Assembly (NCBI GenBank): GCA_030295235.1
Contig: AP026130.1
Location: 434,001 to 498,000, forward strand
Direction of reading: 5' to 3'
Source: Fistulifera solaris
Taxonomy: Eukaryota
Length of the DNA: 64,000 nt
Part shown: positions 8,146-22,301 of the stretch, piece after piece
Numbering within the stretch: the stretch's first letter is position 1
Layout of the letters: each line of letters begins with the position of its first letter
Made by a program: the position numbers and the translations under genes
The notes under the pieces: model-generated
The model's database searches: none
The model's input: the letters and a program-made list of their open reading frames with translations, nothing else
What the model was told of the DNA's origin: nothing

Positions 8146-9057
8146 CTACTGGTCTTTTCGAGGTTCCTCAACCGACGGTTGTGGCAATGCACTGTAGATC
8201 AATTTCATACACTTCTGTTTGAGATCCTCCAAATTTTCCTTGCCGGTGACTTTCACCGACGGATGAACCGTTAAAGTAATTACGGGGGCAGACCCACCCC
8301 ACAGGACATTGAAGGGATACAACGAATTCCATATATCGTGAGGAATTTGTATTGACAAGGGAATTAAACGAGTTTGATTCGTTTGTGCCATGACAAAGGC
8401 CCCATTTTTGAAGGGTAATTGCTCCGCCATGCGGCGTGTGCCTTGCGGAAACAAAAACATGGGAATTCCCGCTTGTAAGGCTTGCTTGGATTTCTCAAAC
8501 AAGGTCGATACACTAGATTGATTTTTTCCGGTACGTCGATCAATCATAACATGTCCTCCCAACCACATGACTTGCCCGACGCCCGGCAAATAATAAACGG
8601 ATTGTTTGGCAATCCATTTGAACCGCTGATTCAAGTAGTACGCGGCTCCGACATCGAGTTGGCTGGCGTGATTCGCGATGAAAATAGGAGCCGGTACTTC
8701 CTTTTGTGTAGGTAAATGCTCTGTGCCTCTAATTTGGACCCGCCCTATTAATAATACAGTACAACACCGAGCCACCCAGTGCTCAACGAAATGATGACAA
8801 TCGTATTCGAGATCGGATCTTCCAAGCATAAGAATCCATTTCAATGTCACCAAAACAACACCACATAAACACATGAGCATCCAAAGTTGATTGTATACGA
8901 AGACTTTAATACAACCCCACAAAGAAAGAGAGGGAAGGGATGCAGGTTTCCAAATCTTTCGTTCTTGTAAAACAGCCACACCCGCCGCTACTGTTGTGAC
9001 GACAATGACATAACCACCGATTGCTCGAGCAGCGTAATGAACAAGAATACTGCTCAT
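8146..9057 (-). CDS. 1-acyl-sn-glycerol-3-phosphate acyltransferase (PlsC/LPAAT family)
   Basis: NHASQLD (HX4D), KWIAKQS, IDR and FPQGTR blocks; N-terminal hydrophobic helices; intronless. Confidence 0.88.
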   Translation of the reverse strand: MSSILVHYAARAIGGYVIVVTTVAAGVAVLQERKIWKPASLPSLSLWGCIKVFVYNQLWMLMCLCGVVLVTLKWILMLGRSDLEYDCHHFVEHWVARCCTVLLIGRVQIRGTEHLPTQKEVPAPIFIANHASQLDVGAAYYLNQRFKWIAKQSVYYLPGVGQVMWLGGHVMIDRRTGKNQSSVSTLFEKSKQALQAGIPMFLFPQGTRRMAEQLPFKNGAFVMAQTNQTRLIPLSIQIPHDIWNSLYPFNVLWGGSAPVITLTVHPSVKVTGKENLEDLKQKCMKLIYSALPQPSVEEPRKDQ

Positions 9058-11993: not shown

Positions 11994-12683
11994 ATGAGTT
12001 TTCCTCCAGATGATGCGGAAAATGAATGGGAATACATCAATGGCGAAACAAGGCCTCTTCTTAGAAACGATCGAAAAGTCGCCGTGGGAGGAGACGAATC
12101 TGATGCGGCTAGTGAAAACCGTGCTGCCAAAACAAGTCTCTGGGATCGTTACTGCGAATTACTAGAGACTCATCCGCTTTTTGTGAAGAGCGTTACCGCT
12201 CTTTTCATCGTTGGTAGCGGTGATCTTTGTGCGCAAGGAGTAGAGCATCTCCGGGGAACGAACCACAGTGCGAGCGTAGATTGGCTTCGGGTCGCTCGAT
12301 TTGGTGCAATTGGCTTCTTCGGAGCTCCGTGGAGTCATTATTACTTTTCCTTCCTGGACCATTACTTGCCCCCGACTGAAAAACCGTTTACACGAAGAAC
12401 TTTTGTCAAAGTTTTGATCGATCAATTCATTCAAGCTCCAATTCTCCTCTTGTTGATGATCAGCGGTCTTAGCTTACTGCAGCTAAATGGAATCGAGGGA
12501 GTAAAGAAATCAGTCCGAGATACATTTTGGACCAGCTTAGTTGCAAACTGGAAATTCTGGATCACGGCCTCCTTCATTAATTTGGCGTTTGTGAGGCCAG
12601 AGTTTCGCGTATTGTTTTTGAACTGTGGGTTCTTGATATGGATAATTATTTTATCCATCATTTTGAATAGTGAATCCACTTAG
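11994..12683 (+). CDS. Mpv17/PMP22 family membrane protein (second paralog, no signal peptide)
   Basis: HPLFVKSVTA...GDLCAQ, DWLRVARF, KVLIDQ and ANWKFW motifs; intronless. Confidence 0.9.
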   Translation: MSFPPDDAENEWEYINGETRPLLRNDRKVAVGGDESDAASENRAAKTSLWDRYCELLETHPLFVKSVTALFIVGSGDLCAQGVEHLRGTNHSASVDWLRVARFGAIGFFGAPWSHYYFSFLDHYLPPTEKPFTRRTFVKVLIDQFIQAPILLLLMISGLSLLQLNGIEGVKKSVRDTFWTSLVANWKFWITASFINLAFVRPEFRVLFLNCGFLIWIIILSIILNSEST

Positions 12684-13195
12684 ACTAGATGATTATCGAG
12701 AATCAGGGATCAATAATACGTAGTAAGTAATAATTGAATAGAACTGAGTAACCATTGTGCTTGCATGTACTGAACTGCGTGATTAGTTTGGAACAATTGA
12801 TGATCGGCGACACACAAGATCATAGCTCTCCGGTAATTACAATGATGTCCGAGCTTTTAGAGGCATCTCTGCTGGACCTGGACGGGCTCTATAGACCTAG
12901 CTTTTTAATCGCACAGCCTTTAGCCTTAGCTTTAAGTGGTGTTGAAAGAAGGGACGAGGAACGAGGCCCGAAATCTAAAGAGGCCAATTGCTCCATGTTC
13001 TTTTTAGGCCCTTCTTTTCCACCTAAATAGCCCCCGATCGAAATCCTGCAATAAATCTTGTTGACTCGAAAGTTCGAGTTCGTAGAAACATTGAGTCATC
13101 TCTATGGAAGTCTTCTCATGTTTCATGCATCCTTATTTATCTTCGTTTTGTCGGCGAGCTTACAAATTTCGAGCAGAAACAAACTAGCAGTCAAC

Positions 13196-14165
13196 ATGTC
13201 TTTCGAAACTATGATGGAACGCGCGAAAAGCGCCGATGGCTTTCTCGCTGCGCTCGATCAAAGCGGTGGAAGCACCCCGAAGGCCTTAAAGATCTACGGC
13301 GTCCCCGATGATGTAAGTTGCGACTCGTCTTATAATTCAAAATAGCGTGTGTCCTCAATATAGTATCTTTGTATCTTATCTATCAGGCGTATGTCAGTGG
13401 GGAGGAGTCGATGTACGAAATGGTGCACGCCATGCGTAGCCGTATCATCACGGCAAAACCCTTCACAGGAGAAAAGATCCTCGGGGCCATCCTGTTCGAG
13501 AACACAATGGATCGCGAGATCGAAGGATCCCCACCGGGCAATATCTCTGGGAGAAGAAAAACATCATTCCTTTCATCAAGATTGATAAGGGTCTAGCAGA
13601 TGAGGAAAACGGCGTGCAGTTGATGAAGCCCATTCCAGGTCTGGAAGACCTACTCAAACGCGCAAAGGCAAAAGGATTTTTCGGTACCAAGATGAGATCG
13701 GTAATCAACAGCGCCAATGAACAGGGAATCAAGGCTATTGTGGACCAACAGTTCGCTATCGGAAAGCAAATCATTTCCTTCGGTTTGGTGCCTATCATTG
13801 AGCCCGAAGTCAACATTAAGGCCGACGATAAAGAGCTCTGTGAAGACATCCTCAAAAGTCGTATCATGGAACAACTCGACCAGCTCGGAGATGACGAAAA
13901 GGTGATGCTCAAGCTCACGCTCCCGACAAAGGTGAATCACTACAGAGAATGCATTGACCATCCCAAAGTAGTTCGTGTTGTAGCCTTGAGCGGAGGGTAC
14001 AGTCGTGATGAAGCGAATGAGATCCTGGCAAAACAAAAAGGAATGATCGCTAGTTTTTCGCGTGCTCTAGCGGAGGGATTGGTGTACGGCTCGAGCGATG
14101 AAGAGTACGAAAGTGTACTGGCCAAATCAATTGATGCTATCTATGAAGCCTCCAAGTCCGGGTAG
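13196..14165 (+). CDS. FBA4: Class I fructose-bisphosphate aldolase, bacterial (Staphylococcus-like) type, no presequence (cytosolic FBA4-like)
   Basis: [45 protein letters not shown] (Schiff-base Lys), ALSGGY, ASFSRAL. Intron 13313-13386. One G missing near 13525 (expected [13 protein letters not shown]). Confidence 0.92.
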
Positions 14166-14210
14166 AAGGTAGAAGCACCCTTGCTACCAACATAAGTCAA
14201 CCTGATAGAC

Positions 14211-15413
14211 TTACTTAGCAATGGTTCCATTTATCTTTTTCCATTCTTCCAAATACTTGGCTACCAAATGTATTTGCAGGTCATCTTTGAAGGCCTCTTC
14301 ATTCAAATCTCGATACCCGGATATTTTCGCAGGTACACCGCTGACAATAGCAAGTGGTGGGACTGGCTTAGTAACAATCGACTTGGCCGTTACAACGGCA
14401 CCATCACCCACGGGGATGTTTCCTAGAATTGTGCCCCCGTCTTGAACAATTACTCCATTTCCAATTTTGGGGTGCCGATCTCCCCTCTCCTTCCCCGTTC
14501 CGCCTAACGTCACACCCTCTGCCAGCGACGTATCATTTCCCACCACAGCAGTTTCTCCAATCACAACCCCGGCGCCGGTACGTAGATAAATCGAGCTTCC
14601 CATGGTGCATGCGGGATGAATATCGGCGGAATAGATCCGACTCACCTTCGATTGCATGTAGTAGGCTAGGGCTGTGCGCCCGGCTCGCCACAGTCGAGAA
14701 CCGAGACGATAGCAAACCAATGCTTGAAAGCCATTGTGGAATAAGATTGCGAGCATAGCACTTTCTACCGAAGGACTTCGTGTAGCGACAGCTTCCAAAT
14801 CCAGCCGAATACAAGCCTCGTCCTCGGCAAATAAATTTTCCAAGAAAAGGTTTTTGATAGCCGGAGCGGGAATCAATTCGGTTTCGATACGATGCGATAT
14901 TATTGTGCAAATAGCTTCCAAAAGAGTCGTTTGTGATAATATTCCTTGATAGACTTGAGGTCCAGCTTCGGGTTCTACTTCCAAAACCGCCCTCGCTTCC
15001 ATTTTGACTTGCTCCCAAAATGGATCGTATTTCTCATTCTTTTCCAACTGCTTACGAGAATAATCTAAAAACTCCTGCCAGTCATGATCGGACGAGAAGA
15101 TGACTTGCGATCGATAGGGATTCAGCGTCCTACTATTGCGTAATGAAACATTCATGGTCACTGGAGATGTCGGCACTCTTTCGAAATCATCTGCTGTAGT
15201 TCCAATGCCTGCTTCGAAAGTAGGAATTGATGAATTGAGTGGTTTAGGAGAAGACCCAGAGATAGAGGATGAAAAGAGCTCCATTCGCTTCAGTTTCAGG
15301 TTCCGATGACATCGAGAAGCAGAAATCGGTTGTCGGAGTAGCAGGGAATCGGAACACCGCAATATTGTTAGCAACGCGATCGTAAGAATCGCTTTCCGTA
15401 AATGCGTTTTCAT
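14211..15413 (-). CDS. Serine O-acetyltransferase-like protein with signal/transit peptide; catalytic Asp-His replaced
   Basis: SATase N-terminal helical domain, DIHPA, VIGETAVVG, VTLGGTGK..GDRHPKIG, GVPAK. The canonical LDHxTG reads LRTGAG. Confidence 0.88.
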   Translation of the reverse strand: MKTHLRKAILTIALLTILRCSDSLLLRQPISASRCHRNLKLKRMELFSSSISGSSPKPLNSSIPTFEAGIGTTADDFERVPTSPVTMNVSLRNSRTLNPYRSQVIFSSDHDWQEFLDYSRKQLEKNEKYDPFWEQVKMEARAVLEVEPEAGPQVYQGILSQTTLLEAICTIISHRIETELIPAPAIKNLFLENLFAEDEACIRLDLEAVATRSPSVESAMLAILFHNGFQALVCYRLGSRLWRAGRTALAYYMQSKVSRIYSADIHPACTMGSSIYLRTGAGVVIGETAVVGNDTSLAEGVTLGGTGKERGDRHPKIGNGVIVQDGGTILGNIPVGDGAVVTAKSIVTKPVPPLAIVSGVPAKISGYRDLNEEAFKDDLQIHLVAKYLEEWKKINGTIAK

Positions 15414-15685: not shown

Positions 15686-16903
15686 TTACTGAGCGGCAGC
15701 ATAAGCGTCAATGACTTCCTGAACGTCGTTTTTGGATCCCATAATGACAGGAACGCGTTGGTGAACCACTTCGGGGGAGATTTCCATGACACGTTCTTTA
15801 CCCGTAGTTGAAAGTCCTCCCGCTTGCTCGACAATGAAGGACATGGGGGCACCTTCATACAATAAACGCAGCTTTCCGTTGGGATTCTTCTTGTCGCCAG
15901 GATATCCAAAGACACCACCGTAAAGAAGGGTTCGGTGAACATCACCGACCATGGATCCAATGTAACGGCTGGAGAATTTCTTTCCGGATTTTCCTTTTCC
16001 AGCTTTCCACTTAGCTACCGTCTCTTGGAGAGGCTTGTCCCAGTTGGGTGTGTTGGCCTCATTAAAAGAAATGATCGATGATTCTTCGGGGATCTTAATA
16101 TCCGGATGACTCAACACAAATTCACCTAGATTCTCATCCAACGTGAATCCATAAGTTCCCGATCCCAGCGTCAAGACCAAGAAAGTCGACGAGGAGTACA
16201 GACAGTAAGCCGCCGCTACTAAGTTGGTACCGGGCTGGAGAGTGTTCGCCAAGCACTGGGCTTCCTGCTCGGTGCAGTCTTCACCGACGCAGTCGGGGTC
16301 GATGGCACAGTTTTCGTCGTGTTCGTAGATTCCAATAATGGTTCCGGTAGGGATACCGGCATCCACGTTCGAAGATCCATCCAAAGGATCAAAAACCGCC
16401 ACATATCGTTCGCCTTCATCAATCAGCACACCTTTGTTGGCACCACTCAGATCGACAGGAACGTCCTCTTCTTCCGAAGCCAAAACACCAAGACGACCCG
16501 TGAAACGAAGAGCCCGCTTCAAAAGATCGTTTGTGATAACATCCAACTTCTTCTGATCCTCTCCTTGCACATTCACTTCACCCTGATAGCCCAGAGTCTC
16601 ACTGGAAGGAAGTTGCGATCGCTTGACGAGATTCGAAATGGCTTTGCAGGCCGTCTCGATCGCCCCGAACAAGACCGTCAATTCCGTGATATCTGGGTTG
16701 AGCATGGCAACTTCGGACATGAATCGCTTCAACGTGACTCCGGTCGTTTCACAGACTTCATCAAAGACGGGCGCCTTGGTCTTTTGCGGAGCCGACGCGA
16801 CGTGCAGGGCGGTCGACGATGCACGGAACGGGCGGCTGACCGAGAAAGCCGACAACGTCGAAGTCGTGCTCACCAGGAGAACTGTAAAGAGATTCAATTT
16901 CAT
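15686..16903 (-). CDS. FBP: Plastid fructose-1,6-bisphosphatase (paralog A, intronless)
   Basis: LSA-F presequence; GEDQKKLDV, ASEE, FDPLDGSSN, RYIGSMVGDVHRTLLYGG, GKLRLLYE; Cys-rich redox loop. Confidence 0.96.
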   Translation of the reverse strand: MKLNLFTVLLVSTTSTLSAFSVSRPFRASSTALHVASAPQKTKAPVFDEVCETTGVTLKRFMSEVAMLNPDITELTVLFGAIETACKAISNLVKRSQLPSSETLGYQGEVNVQGEDQKKLDVITNDLLKRALRFTGRLGVLASEEEDVPVDLSGANKGVLIDEGERYVAVFDPLDGSSNVDAGIPTGTIIGIYEHDENCAIDPDCVGEDCTEQEAQCLANTLQPGTNLVAAAYCLYSSSTFLVLTLGSGTYGFTLDENLGEFVLSHPDIKIPEESSIISFNEANTPNWDKPLQETVAKWKAGKGKSGKKFSSRYIGSMVGDVHRTLLYGGVFGYPGDKKNPNGKLRLLYEGAPMSFIVEQAGGLSTTGKERVMEISPEVVHQRVPVIMGSKNDVQEVIDAYAAAQ

Positions 16904-17331: not shown

Positions 17332-18643
17332 ATGAAGTTCAACTTGGTGGTATCGCTTCTCGTATGCACGGCATCTCATGCCTTTGTTTCTCAATCGTCA
17401 CCCCGACCCTTCGTTCGGGCGTCTTCGCCAGTCTTTGCCACCGTCGAAGCCCCAGTGGCTCGAAAGACCAAGGCACCCGTCTTTGATGAAGTCTGCGAGA
17501 CTACGGGTGTTACTTTATCGCGCTTCATGAATGAAGTTGCTATGTTGAATCCGGAATTGAAAGAACTCGCCATTTTGTTCGGAGCCATTGATACTGCGTG
17601 CAAGGCCATTACCAACCTCGTCAAGCGATCGCAATTGCCTTCCAGTGAGACTCTGGGTTATCAGGGTGAAGTGAATGTGCAAGGAGAGGATCAGAAGAAG
17701 TTGGATGTTATCACAAACGATCTTTTGAAGCGGGCTCTTCGTTTCACGGGTCGTCTAGGTGTTTTGGCTTCGGAAGAAGAGGACGTTCCTGTCGATCTGA
17801 TCGGAAATGATAAGAGCGATAGTCGAGATATTTTGATCGAAGAAGGCGAACGATATGTTGCCGTCTTTGATCCCTTGGATGGATCATCCAACGTGGATGC
17901 CGGTATCCCCACAGGAACCATTATCGGAATCTACGAGCACGACGAAAACTGCGTCGTCGATCCGGATGTGAGTGATTGGGAGAACTACCAAGCTTAAGTG
18001 TCTTTTGCTTCTCTAACCTTTAGCTGCTTACTTTTGACAGTGCCTTGGAGATGATTGCTCGGAACAGGAAGCCCAGTGCCTGGCGAACACGCTTCAGCCC
18101 GGAACGAACTTGGTCGCTGCTGCTTACTGTCTGTACTCCTCGTCGACCATCCTAGCCTTGACTTTAGGAAACGGTGTTTACATGTTTACTTTGGATGAAA
18201 CCATCGGAGAGTTTGTCCTTTCCAAGCCCAATGTCAAGATCCCCGATGACGCTACGATCTACTCGTTCAACGAGGCCAACTTGGAAATGTGGGACGCTCC
18301 GATGCGAAAATGCGTAGAATCGTGGCGCATGGGAACGGGTAAATCCGGTAAGACTTTCTCGAGCCGTTACATTGGATCCATGGTGGGTGATGTGCACCGC
18401 ACATTGTTGTACGGAGGCGTCTTTGGATACCCGGGGGACACCAAGAACCCCAACGGAAAGCTGCGCCTGTTGTACGAAGGTGCTCCCATGTCTTTCATCA
18501 TGGAACAGGCGGGAGGCATTTCTACGACGGGAAGAAAGCGCGTGATGGAGATTACCCCCGAAGTGGTTCACCAACGTGTCCCTGTCATCATGGGCTCCAA
18601 GAACGTGGTTCAGGAAGTGATTGACGCCTACGCGGCCGAGTAA
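17332..18643 (+). CDS. FBP: Plastid fructose-1,6-bisphosphatase (paralog B)
   Basis: SHA-F presequence; same FBPase motifs as paralog A. Intron 17968-18040 lies inside the Cys loop. Confidence 0.96.
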
Positions 18644-19121: not shown

Positions 19122-20332
19122 ATGAAGTTCGTTGCCGCTCTCTTTCTCTTTGTGAACTCGGCTACTGCTTTCAGCCTGAGTTCTCCTGCTTTCGCTGCAC
19201 CCAAGACCTCTTCAACGCAACTCATGGGTGAATTCGGTGCTTCCTCCACTTCGTTCTACACCACCACGGAGAAAAAAGATTCTTACGAGAGTTTGGACGA
19301 TGTTTTGAGCACCAAGTGCAGTGATCCCAAAGTTCGTCATGTCATCAAGGACATGCTCAACGTATGCGCCGAAATCACGGAGGCTTTGCGAACTGCCCTT
19401 GTGACTGTGGAAGGTAGCATGAACGATTTCGGAGACGCGCAGCTCAGTGTTGACGTAAGTACTGCAACGCGCTCCGACGTGACAGTTTGGCAGAATACAG
19501 TCCCTCACACGCCATATCTTCACTCCTTTTTTACTTATCATAGGTAATTGCCGATAACTTGCTATGGGATGCTGTCAAGCGCTCTTCGGTGGTCCGTGAA
19601 GGAGCTTCGGAAGAAGACCCCATTGTTCGTGACGTTGACGAAGGCGGTGAGGGTGAATTCACTGTCTGCTGGGATCCCTTGGATGGTTCTTCGATTGTGG
19701 ATAACAACTGGGCTGTAGGAACCATGATCGGTATCTGGCCCAAGCGCACTGGACTGATCGGAGCGACGGGCCGTGATCAGGTCACTTCCTTGGTGGCCCT
19801 GTACGGTCCCCGAACGACAGTTTTGGTGGCCCTCGACGACGGAACGTATGAATTCAGCTACGGTTGCACACCCGAGGGGTGCCAGCTCCCGGATGGATCT
19901 TGGGAACCCTGGATCTGCTCTCGTCACAAAATTCAAATCAAGCCCGACTGCAAGATCTTTTCACCGGCCAACTTGCGTGCGGCACAAGATGTGGCAGGAT
20001 ACAAGAAACTCGTCGATCATTACATGGAAAACCGTTACACTCTTCGTTACTCGGGAGGTTTGGTGCCAGATGTTTACCAACAGTTTACCAAGGAACAGGG
20101 TGTCTTCTCCAACCCCACTTCGTCTAGCAGCCCTGCCAAGCTCCGTCTTGCTTTTGAAGCCGCTCCTTTCGGTCTTTTGGTTGAGAAATCCGGCGGAAAG
20201 ACCTCAGATGGTGTCACTGGTGGATCCATCTTGGATGTTCAGATCAACTCCGTGGACCAGCGTACTGCCCTCTGCATTGGATCGGCCAACGAGGTAAACC
20301 GATTCAACGAATTCCTCAGCCTTGGTAACTAA
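19122..20332 (+). CDS. SBP: Plastid sedoheptulose-1,7-bisphosphatase
   Basis: ATA-F presequence; FGDAQLSVDV, WDPLDGSSIVDNNWAVGT, YGPRTT, YTLRYSGGLVPDV, AKLRLAFEAAP (SBPase-type rather than FBPase-type signatures). Intron 19455-19543. Confidence 0.92.
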
Positions 20333-20489: not shown

Positions 20490-22301
20490 TTAATCCGCAT
20501 GAGGGAATGGGAAGCTTCGTCCTGTGCCTCCATCGCCGGGCTCTCCATTCATTGTTCTCATTCGCATAATATCGCGCTCGCGACGGCCTCGGAAGATCCA
20601 TCGAATAGGGGTAGCTTCAAAGCCATCTAAACTTTCTCGGAATTTGCGATCCAAATACCGCCTGTAGTTATCATTCACGAGCTTAGGGTCGTTGCAAAAT
20701 ACTACGATTGTGGGAGGTCTCGTACTGACTTGGTTGCAATAGTAGATTCTCGCTTGGGAGCCGTTTCGACGAGCCGGCGGTGGCTGCCACAAAATGGCAT
20801 CTCTCAAGACCTCGTTCAAAATCGACGTACTTATTCTTTTCCTGTGCGCTGCAATTGCTTCATCGATAACACCGTAAATTTTACCTACACGTTGACCGGT
20901 AGCGGCTGAGATGAACAGAATCGGAGCCCATCGAATCTGCGGAAGTTCCTCGCGTACATATTTGACAGCCTTGTCGTACGTCAAGGAGTCCTTGTCCACA
21001 ACGGCGTCCCATTTGTTGCATATTATGGCACATGCTCTGCCATCATCTGATATTTTCTGTGCTAATATGCGATCTTGCTCGGTAACACCAGCAGTGGCAT
21101 CCAAGATAAGCAAGACCACATCCGCTCGCCGAATCGCTCGAAGCGCCCTGTTGACCATGAAAAACTCAGGCCCAAAATCGACTTTTCCCTTTCTTCGAAT
21201 GCCGGCGGTATCCACAAAACGGTACAAAGTAGGCTGCTCGTCCGAACCAGGTGGAGCAGGTCGTTCCATCACGGCATCGATGGAGTCCCTGGTGGTTCCG
21301 GCAAGATCTGAAACGATGGCCCGTGTGCCGCCAAAGATTGCATTCAATAGGCTCGATTTTCCTACATTGGGGCGTCCTATGATAGCGACATTGATCTCTT
21401 CTTGTTGTTCTAACTCATCAAACGCTGCTAGGGCATCCTCATACGCATCCAAAGCATTTTGAGCAGCATCTCCGATTCCATATTTTCGCATCTTGTAGGA
21501 GGTCTCATCCTCACCAGGAAGAGGACCTTTGTGCTTCATAATTGCTTTTGCCTCCTGTAACTTCTTCACTTTCGTACCGAATCCATCAATCGCTGTTTTC
21601 TTTTGCGCGATCTGCTCAAACATGGACTCTAGAAGATCCGCAGTCCCTACTCCGTGTAATGCGGAAACAGGAAAGGGTTCTCCAAGTCCCAACTGCCAGA
21701 ACTCGGACGCCGCCATAGCTCCCGTCTTTTCACTCTCACATTTGTTGACAGCCATCAGTACTGGAATATCTTTGACAACTTCCTTCCGCAAGAATTCAGC
21801 AATGGCCACATCCATCGGTGAGAGCCCCGCTTGCCCATCCGCTACCAAGATAACTGCCGCGCTTTCTTCAATCGCTATCATGGCCTGTTCACGAATCTCT
21901 TTCGCAAACAAAGTATTCTCATCGTCATCAAACACCAACCCTCCCGTATCCACTACAGAGAAATGCTCTCCCAGGAATTCGGCCGGTCGATACGTTCGAT
22001 CGCGCGTGATACCGGACTCGTCCGCCACAATGGCGCCGCCCGACTGACTCCCGGCAATGCGATTGACGAGTGCCGACTTTCCGACATTCGGGCGACCGAC
22101 AATAGCAATCAAAGGTACTTTTTTGTTCTTCCGAGCGCGTCGAATGGGTTGTTGCGTCGGATTGTCGGCTTCGATTTTGGTAGAATACAGTAACATGGAA
22201 ACTGGTTTTGCCGGTAACTTTGTCATGGAAGGACTCAGCCAGCTTTGAGCGGCTTCCATGAGAAACAGTAATGCAATGGTGCTTCTCAATAGAAATATCA
22301 T
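20490..22301 (-). CDS. der: Plastid ribosome-biogenesis GTPase Der/EngA
   Basis: Two tandem G domains (GRPNVGKS twice, DTGG/DTAG, NKCE/NKWD) and a KH-like C-terminus; signal peptide ending AQS-W. Confidence 0.95.
   Translation of the reverse strand: MIFLLRSTIALLFLMEAAQSWLSPSMTKLPAKPVSMLLYSTKIEADNPTQQPIRRARKNKKVPLIAIVGRPNVGKSALVNRIAGSQSGGAIVADESGITRDRTYRPAEFLGEHFSVVDTGGLVFDDDENTLFAKEIREQAMIAIEESAAVILVADGQAGLSPMDVAIAEFLRKEVVKDIPVLMAVNKCESEKTGAMAASEFWQLGLGEPFPVSALHGVGTADLLESMFEQIAQKKTAIDGFGTKVKKLQEAKAIMKHKGPLPGEDETSYKMRKYGIGDAAQNALDAYEDALAAFDELEQQEEINVAIIGRPNVGKSSLLNAIFGGTRAIVSDLAGTTRDSIDAVMERPAPPGSDEQPTLYRFVDTAGIRRKGKVDFGPEFFMVNRALRAIRRADVVLLILDATAGVTEQDRILAQKISDDGRACAIICNKWDAVVDKDSLTYDKAVKYVREELPQIRWAPILFISAATGQRVGKIYGVIDEAIAAHRKRISTSILNEVLRDAILWQPPPARRNGSQARIYYCNQVSTRPPTIVVFCNDPKLVNDNYRRYLDRKFRESLDGFEATPIRWIFRGRRERDIMRMRTMNGEPGDGGTGRSFPFPHAD

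Follow-up and report, generated by a model that had tools for sequence, protein, structure and literature searches.

Serine acetyltransferase (SAT; bacterial CysE and plant SERAT) has an active site that sits between two monomers. As set out in the active-site passages of PMC8786284, the left monomer of the N. gonorrhoeae enzyme, whose numbering is that of E. coli plus 4, supplies Asp96, Asp161, and His162, and the right monomer supplies Asp147, Glu170, Arg196, and His197, with His162 and Asp147 making up the catalytic dyad. The inter-subunit site is also described in PMC9547175, where a figure legend divides the residues of the E. coli structure 1T3D between chains in the same manner. In the E. 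coli numbering, which we use hereafter, His158 is the general base, Asp143 is its partner, and His193 is a further catalytic residue (relevant sections of PMC8786284, PMC9547175, and PMC13256707); Glu166 is a residue of the site (PMC8786284), and Asp92 and Asp157 hold the amino group of serine. Here, we describe a gene from Fistulifera solaris, located at positions 14211 to 15413 on the minus strand of a 64,000 nucleotide stretch of contig AP026130.1 (assembly GCA_030295235.1; hereafter, the window), whose predicted product has lost the residues that the left subunit contributes to this shared site and has retained those contributed by the right. Judged from its sequence, the gene belongs to a clade of SAT paralogues, both old and conserved, that is present in diatoms and other ochrophyte algae.

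The deoxyhypusine synthase heteromer offers one case of a dead paralogue at work in a mixed assembly. The trypanosome S-adenosylmethionine decarboxylase (AdoMetDC) “prozyme”, as portrayed in passages of PMC5201418, embodies a like idea, namely a conserved dead paralogue that acts only in a hetero-oligomer with sites at the subunit interfaces. Both belong to families unrelated to SAT, and their hetero-oligomers have been shown, whereas that of the SAT pair considered here is modelled only. Within the same pathway as SAT, the spinach protein SoCSaseLP is a non-catalytic paralogue, an inactive O-acetylserine(thiol)lyase (OAS-TL)-like protein that suppresses cysteine synthesis and has been proposed as a regulator of the pathway (passages of PMC5889488), but it is a paralogue of OAS-TL, not of SAT, and comes from a land plant.

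The SAT-like frame is uninterrupted over 400 codons. The features of the gene, and of its predicted protein, to which the argument refers are as follows (window coordinates):

14211..15413, minus strand: SAT-like coding sequence in a single exon, 400 aa, from ATG to TAA, with the stop codon at 14211-14213
15345..15413, minus strand: hydrophobic N-terminal helix MKTHLRKAILTIALLTILRCSDS, residues 1-23, signal-peptide-like (AlphaFold2 helix at 2-20; “SP” by a hydropathy rule)
15132..15344, minus strand: disordered, fast-evolving presequence, residues 24-94, transit-peptide-like (low model confidence; drop in identity)
14718..15017, minus strand: SATase_N alpha-helical domain, residues 133-232 (Pfam PF06426; high model confidence, as given below)
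14775..14777, minus strand: Ser213 (AGT) at the Asp92 column, a left-subunit position that holds the serine amino group; lost
14313..14627, minus strand: left-handed beta-helix (hexapeptide) domain, residues 263-367 (1t3d alignment, AlphaFold2 model, and Foldseek)
14622..14624, minus strand: Asp264, equivalent to Asp143, the dyad member that the right subunit supplies; kept
14577..14582, minus strand: Arg278-Thr279 (CGT ACC) at the Asp157-His158 columns, of which His158 is the general base; both lost
14553..14555, minus strand: Glu287, equivalent to Glu166, a right-subunit site residue; kept
14466..14504, minus strand: extended active-site loop GGTGKERGDRHPK, residues 304-316, with Arg313-His314 equivalent to Arg192-His193; kept
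14241..14315, minus strand: clade-specific C-terminal motif YRxL..F.DDL..HL..KYL..W, residues 367-391, in place of the canonical tail that docks on OAS-TL

With a SATase_N domain followed by a left-handed beta-helix, and with likeness to solved SATs in both sequence and fold, the protein is a member of the SAT family, as the initial annotation had proposed from the intact 400-aa open reading frame. The Pfam SATase_N model matches residues 133-232 at an E value of 1.4e-17 (64.4 bits against a cut-off of 21), and the Hexapep model stays below threshold (20 bits against 27). A phmmer search of PDB sequences returned full-length SATs as its best 15 matches, headed by E. coli CysE (1t3d; E value of 2.8e-58). 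The AlphaFold2 model, built from 128 aligned relatives, has a mean predicted local distance difference test score (pLDDT) of 85.2, rising above 95 in residues 100-400 and falling below 50 in residues 24-94, with helices at 2-20 and 381-399. Foldseek places this model on solved SATs at a root-mean-square deviation of 1.1-1.4 Å over ~240 columns and a target template modelling score of 0.84-0.95, and the top matches are all SATs. The canonical bacterial and plant enzymes, with solved structures such as 1t3d, 6wye, 7e3y, and 4n69, share the domains of the protein and are ~40% identical to it. The protein nevertheless scores below the NCBIfam equivalog cut-offs for the canonical enzymes (TIGR01172, 172.1 against 210.65; NF008349, 226.6 against 397; EpsC, 137.2 against 150), although these models are bacterial, and the canonical diatom protein P0329 itself narrowly misses TIGR01172 (209.8) while passing EpsC (172.7). 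The G+C content of the gene is 0.467, compared with 0.457 for the window, and tblastn found no second SAT-like locus in the 64 kb.

An alignment with 1t3d, whose chain index is the E. coli numbering plus 16, sets the query stretch “siylrtgagvvigetav” opposite “gimldhatgivvgetav”, and “trsps” opposite “trdpa”. Asp157 and His158 are thereby replaced by Arg278 (CGT, 14580-14582) and Thr279 (ACC, 14577-14579), the exchange to which the initial annotation had drawn attention, and Asp92 is replaced by Ser213. Since each of the three codons lies at least two bases away from GAY (Asp) or CAY (His), the substitutions are not indel artefacts, which agrees with the earlier view of them as multi-base changes. 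The protein ends in ...NGTIAK, so that its final residue is Lys400 rather than the isoleucine of canonical SATs, again as first described, and its tail helix is different. In common with canonical SATs, it has Asp143, Glu166, Arg192, His193, and the extended loop, and it retains the fold, including the beta-helix through which SATs trimerize. With the general base and both holders of the amino group gone, a homo-oligomer of this protein should not be a useful SAT, and we infer that the protein can no longer acetylate serine alone. The loss of Asp92, the restriction of the losses to one subunit's half-site, and the clade-specific C-terminal helix motif are features that go beyond the initial annotation.

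The Asp-His change is not private to this assembly, and the initial annotation thereby survived the refutation test that it had set itself. A word-indexed search returned 6,595 proteins at E values of 1e-10 or lower among 8,000 scored candidates; the best 120 of these are 53-89% identical to the query, and once they had been aligned with MAFFT, not one of the 120 carried Asp-His at the corresponding positions. A private mutation or a sequencing error was rejected on this ground, and on the agreement of DNA-like contigs from a public run, X1, which cover 14091-14635 with zero mismatched letters. X1 is possibly the assembly's own source, and for that reason its cover of 14091-14635 does not count as independent support. 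A variant contig of X1 carries T>A and A>G at 14824 and 14830, inside the SAT-like gene, and is probably a second allele.

An exhaustive representative search gave 16,073 matches at E values of 0.001 or lower, and two further searches were added, one seeded with P0213 (a canonical SAT with a diatom-type presequence) and the other with P0149 (a more distant protein that lacks Asp-His). The combined set comprised 470 proteins, 462 of which are 230-800 aa long: 263 without Asp-His, 195 with it, and four gapped at those columns. We then used FastTree (LG+gamma) on query columns 127-372 of the 416 sequences that cover more than 90% of those columns, with a short bacterial-type SAT as the root. In this tree, 224 of the 225 sequences that lack Asp-His fall into one clade (support 0.995), which includes no sequence with Asp-His, so that a large and conserved clade is marked out by the loss. 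It divides into a group of 155 leaves (support 0.999), which includes the query together with named members from Amphora, Cylindrotheca, and Nitzschia, and a group of 69 leaves (support 0.89), which includes Ochromonas danica; its named members are thus pennate diatoms and a chrysophyte. Members from Mayamaea and Mallomonas show the same loss and stand outside the tree owing to the coverage filter. Three members of the clade (P0078, P0110, and P0118) have a histidine at the Asp157 column (L-H-T-G), immediately ahead of the place where the catalytic histidine was lost. P0175 (RDPS, ending in GVGI), a canonical-type protein in which Asp-Glu replaces Asp-His, lies outside the clade among canonical sequences, and we read it as a separate loss of the general base. 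A metagenome scan yielded two loci, both of them canonical SATs with FDHATG and 37-40% identity to the query, and a look-up in the ESM Atlas returned generic eukaryotic SAT clusters only.

The same homologues bear on whether the gene is a decaying pseudogene or an assembly artefact. The protein aligns end to end (1-400) with its homologue P0002, to which it is 89% identical; residues 100-400 are 94%, 88%, and 68% identical to P0002, P0003, and P0015, respectively, while residues 1-99 are 73%, 33%, and 18% identical. A conserved mature part behind a drifting presequence is the pattern of a functional, targeted protein. The one observation that might be cited in favor of decay is that three small RNA-like runs (X2-X4), which carry aldolase and fructose bisphosphatase (FBPase) transcripts, have no contig on 14207-15613, and this is not evidence either way. 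An intact frame of 400 codons, 94% identity to the nearest homologue over residues 100-400 while the presequence drifts, hundreds of intact relatives with the same loss, and DNA-like contigs that match 14091-14635 with zero differences all speak against it. A pseudogene was consequently rejected on the intact frame and the conservation of the mature part, and the probability that we would still give to decay or artefact is negligible.

When the columns of the active site are assigned to subunits, the 263 sequences that lack Asp-His are distributed as follows:

Asp143 column, right subunit: D in 263 of 263
Glu166 column, right subunit: E in 262 of 263
Arg192 column, right subunit: R in all 257 ungapped sequences
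His193 column, right subunit: H in 256 of the 257 ungapped sequences
Gly184 column, subunit not assigned: G in 259 of 263
Asp92 column, left subunit: S in 145 and D in 97 of 263
Asp157 column, left subunit: S in 79, R in 66, N in 57, A in 24, C in 13, and others, among the 263
His158 column, left subunit: S in 64, V in 56, T in 44, A in 30, C in 29, and G in 24, among the 263

The corresponding counts in the canonical sequences are D in 193 of 195 at the Asp92 column, D in 195 of 195 at the Asp157 column, and H in 195 of 195 at the His158 column. The pattern in the alignment is one of one-sided loss, in which left-subunit residues are lost while right-subunit residues are kept, and the range of residues seen where the left-side ones were lost suggests relaxed constraint rather than new, fixed chemistry. 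More generally, 67 columns are at least 90% conserved in canonical SATs; in the clade, 32 of these stay at or above 90%, 21 lie between 50% and 90%, and 14 drop below 50%, the last including Asp92, Ala94, Lys106, Ala148, Asp157, His158, Thr160, Gly203, and Ala204.

Diatoms have canonical SATs as well. Those recovered with the P0213 search keep Asp-His in 120 of 120 sequences, the terminal isoleucine in 120 of 120, and Asp92 in 119 of 120 (the remaining one is gapped), and they form a clade of their own (121 leaves, support 0.934) with named members from Stephanodiscus, Thalassiosira, Skeletonema, Odontella, Leptocylindrus, Minutocellus, and Cylindrotheca. As the canonical clade keeps Asp-His throughout, diatoms do not dispense with the catalytic residues. 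Compared with the F. solaris protein, the canonical diatom SATs, of which P0329 is an example, likewise come from diatoms, share the fold, and have a presequence of similar type by the home-made rule given below, but they retain Asp-His and isoleucine, form a separate clade, and are ~35% identical. By source names, both kinds are present in Cylindrotheca fusiformis (canonical P0329 and P0090, which lacks Asp-His), the one species for which this can be said by name.

Might the F. solaris protein still be an ordinary SAT isoform that makes O-acetylserine at a useful rate, as annotated? Many members of the clade carry the source name “serine O-acetyltransferase”, and in the passages concerned the diatom literature treats all SAT homologues as isoforms (PMC3901274, PMC3986220): three SAT genes are counted in Thalassiosira pseudonana and one in Phaeodactylum (PMC3901274), the T. 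pseudonana genes are measured as SAT1-3 (PMC3986220), and a plastid-targeted SAT is mentioned (PMC5859163), with the active-site residues going unmentioned in these passages of the three papers. The absence of the general base and of both aspartates that bind the amino group argues against an ordinary isoform, as do the retention of Asp-His in 120 of 120 members of the canonical diatom clade and the failure to reach the cysE equivalog cut-offs (172.1 where 210.65 is required, and 226.6 where 397 is). We regard an ordinary isoform as improbable, and it is highly likely that the protein is something other than a conventional SAT and that selection maintains what is a genuine clade.

A second possibility is that the protein remains an acyltransferase, but for another acceptor or by another mechanism, with His193 (here, His314) serving as the base, or with an amine or thiol, for which a strong base is unnecessary, as the nucleophile; with two acidic residues gone, the alpha-amino group of serine would be excluded. 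The fold, the beta-helix, and His193 are all kept. Some hexapeptide N-acetyltransferases operate without a catalytic histidine, and the His154 mutant of the H. influenzae enzyme reportedly retains a small residual rate. In the N. gonorrhoeae enzyme, according to the ligand passages of PMC8786284, the serine hydroxyl bonds with His162 as well as with His197, and L-malate, a ligand that lacks an amino group, is also bound. Against this possibility, the lost positions have no conserved replacement residue, and in the column table we saw no invariant His, Asp, Glu, or Cys that the clade alone had gained. Furthermore, Gly203 and Ala204, which are at least 94% conserved in canonical SATs, fall to 18-19%, with Asp the commonest residue at position 204, a column that presumably borders the pantetheine arm, and the protein scores under every NCBIfam acyltransferase cut-off. 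Overall, we think an altered acyltransferase unlikely.

The two ends of the protein suggest where it may act and what it may bind. Diatom plastid presequences have a hydrophobic stretch followed by [ASGCT][FWY]. We looked for them with a home-made rule (a hydrophobic 10-mer and then [ASGCT][FWY]), which is not a validated predictor, and obtained positive results for 114 of 193 assessable clade members, 65 of 111 assessable canonical diatom SATs, and 3 of 36 other SATs. The F. solaris protein, with Leu at the expected aromatic position, may likewise be plastid-targeted, and the canonical and the Asp-His-less diatom proteins are likely to share a compartment.

At the other end, the terminal isoleucine, which anchors the SAT tail in OAS-TL (tail passages of PMC9547175) and marks complex-forming SATs rather than every SAT, is found in 39 of 263 clade members, as compared with 153 of 195 canonical and 120 of 120 canonical diatom sequences. 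Of the 224 clade members in the tree, 33 end in isoleucine, some of them grouped in three small subclades (for example, P0051/52/54/62, P0098/103/115, and P0385/387/388). The tails of these subclades read, for instance, ...SPSEI or ...YSDGI, and such dead paralogues may have kept the ability to dock on OAS-TL. Pseudomonas aeruginosa CysE likewise has no terminal isoleucine and, in the passages of PMC13256707, shows no mutual effect with CysK, although it differs from the F. solaris protein in keeping both catalytic histidines and in being an active enzyme. This null effect supports the notion that SAT homologues without isoleucine form no cysteine synthase complex. In place of the docking tail, the F. 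solaris protein has the stretch ...DDLQIHLVAKYLEEW..., its version of the motif conserved in the diatom subgroup, which follows the beta-helix, fits HLxx[KRE][YF]xxxW, and is modelled as a helix at 381-399 with a pLDDT of ~95. The strict pattern is present in 94 of 166 clade members that lack Asp92, in 5 of 97 that keep it, and in 0 of 195 canonical SATs.

A strictly kept half-site, together with a canonical SAT of similar presequence type in diatoms, suggests mixed trimers or hexamers. The reading that we tentatively favor, while giving it somewhat less than even odds, is that the protein is a non-catalytic subunit, probably targeted to the plastid, that associates with canonical SAT and lends it an intact half-site. 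The protein, presumably inactive by itself, would enter the plastid and form mixed trimers or hexamers with the canonical SAT of that organelle, in which its intact right half would complete the active site of a canonical neighbor, while its own left half would be dead. Mixed particles would have fewer live sites and, because the protein is without the C-terminal isoleucine, fewer tails that dock on OAS-TL; the regulatory effect would be a tuning of O-acetylserine output and of cysteine synthase complex formation. This coincides with the regulatory subunit that was among the roles offered by the initial annotation. The possible further link to plastid carbon status that was offered with it draws solely on gene position, to which we return below.

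We modelled a heterotrimer of two copies of P0329 and one copy of P0090, both from C. fusiformis, which scored 0.90, with 0.00 for the best control. In calibration, 51 of 78 solved complexes attained the 0.90 mark, as did 2 of 108 mismatched pairs. The three runs share at least 74% of contacts, and the partner pLDDT is at least 77. Confident contacts connect Asp229, 251-252 (Glu252), the loop at 269-276, and Arg278 of P0090, which belong to the right half, with 329-334 and 397-400 of P0329, which belong to the left half, and in the model these contacts have the geometry expected of a composite site.

Several points weigh against a half-site subunit. The model passes by resemblance to solved SAT trimers, and in calibration close relatives of a true partner usually pass; it shows compatibility and not binding, and the complex score cannot separate hetero- from homo-oligomers. 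The Asp157 and His158 columns define the class, which leaves Asp92 as the only independent left-side loss, and Asp92 is still present in 97 of the 263 sequences. Conservation of the right half could be structural; the probability that all 4 of 4 right-half columns are among the 32 kept columns by chance is ~0.05. The F. solaris protein is only ~35% identical to P0329, and the sister of the clade (support 0.977) consists of six sequences, P0175 and five of canonical type, rather than the plastid-type diatom clade. As regards targeting, 17 of the 193 assessable members have the hydrophobic stretch alone and 62 have neither feature, and in the F. solaris protein itself the residue behind the hydrophobic stretch is Leu instead of Phe, Trp, or Tyr. 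Lastly, that a new C-terminal helix has been conserved hints that the protein may have a separate partner or function.

An alternative is a stand-alone, non-catalytic homo-oligomer acting as a metabolite sensor or scaffold, in which the Arg192/His193 loop and the CoA groove would bind a carboxylate ligand (serine, cysteine, O-acetylserine, or N-acetylserine) and/or acetyl-CoA or CoA, and the signal would be relayed to a further partner by the new C-terminal helix. The extended loop, GGTGKxxGDRHPK, shows little or no variation in the clade despite the lost chemistry residues; the left-side replacements are small or basic and would make the pocket larger and less acidic; the C-terminal motif is confined to the clade (94 of 166 members without Asp92, and 0 of 195 canonical SATs) and is modelled confidently as a helix; and the nearest canonical relatives of the clade are not plastid-type diatom SATs. 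A newly specified pocket is, however, hard to reconcile with left-side columns that vary as widely as these do (S, R, N, A, C, and K at one; S, V, T, A, C, and G at the other), and in a homotrimer Asp143 would be without its histidine partner, yet it is kept in 263 of 263 sequences. We consider a sensor or scaffold rather unlikely.

The half-site reading also has a stronger form, about which we are more doubtful than about the subunit role itself, in which an obligate mixed SAT particle runs cysteine synthesis in diatom plastids, and perhaps in ochrophytes, with the dead paralogue giving right halves and no docking tails. Were this true, the obligate mixed particle would determine how many sites are live and what valency the cysteine synthase complex has. 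In a bolder variant, the half-site and enlarged pocket would constitute a receptor for O-acetylserine or N-acetylserine that is read out via the C-terminal helix.

The genes that surround the SAT-like gene in the window are as follows:

8146-9057, minus strand: PF01553 acyltransferase
11994-12683, plus strand: Mpv17/PMP22-family protein
13058-14165, plus strand: class-I fructose-bisphosphate aldolase (PDB 2iqt, E value of 2e-56)
15686-16903, minus strand: FBPase gene, member of a head-to-head pair
17332-about 18800, plus strand: FBPase gene, member of a head-to-head pair
19724-20332, plus strand: third FBPase C-terminal domain
20490-22301, minus strand: EngA/Der-type double GTPase

The SAT-like gene thus sits among Calvin-cycle or gluconeogenic genes, and this position carries no weight for its function. 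Among the public runs, X1 behaves as DNA, with even cover, and X2-X4 behave as RNA, with GT..AG joints in the aldolase and FBPase genes. The aldolase gene is broken over two frames in the assembly; all four runs add a G behind 13524, and in RNA-like contigs the stretch 13313-13386 is spliced out (GT..AG). The break appears to be a 1-bp error of assembly, the gene itself being intact and expressed. The head-to-head FBPases have near-identical N-terminal mature regions, and the plus-strand member has a GT..AG intron at 17968-18040 in RNA-like contigs.

In the open full-text literature, we found no description of diatom or other algal SAT homologues without the catalytic residues, a search that excluded subscription journals and bioRxiv supplements. 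What is newly recognized here, by comparison of sequences, is a conserved, half-dead clade within a textbook enzyme family, and the F. solaris gene probably encodes an accessory or regulatory protein and not the enzyme named in its annotation. Diatom annotations, metabolic reconstructions, and expression studies count each SAT homologue as an isoform (in the relevant passages of PMC3901274, PMC3986220, and PMC5859163). If the whole clade makes no O-acetylserine, then isoform counts and flux models of diatom sulfur assimilation would be wrong at the step that couples carbon/nitrogen skeletons to reduced sulfur. The clade would also add a clear case of a pseudoenzyme derived from hexapeptide acyltransferases. 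The one-sided loss of the shared site could reveal a form of regulation of cysteine synthesis that has not been described in plants or bacteria, and, if the obligate mixed particle exists, it would amount to a “prozyme”-like regulatory layer, new to both, in major marine primary producers.

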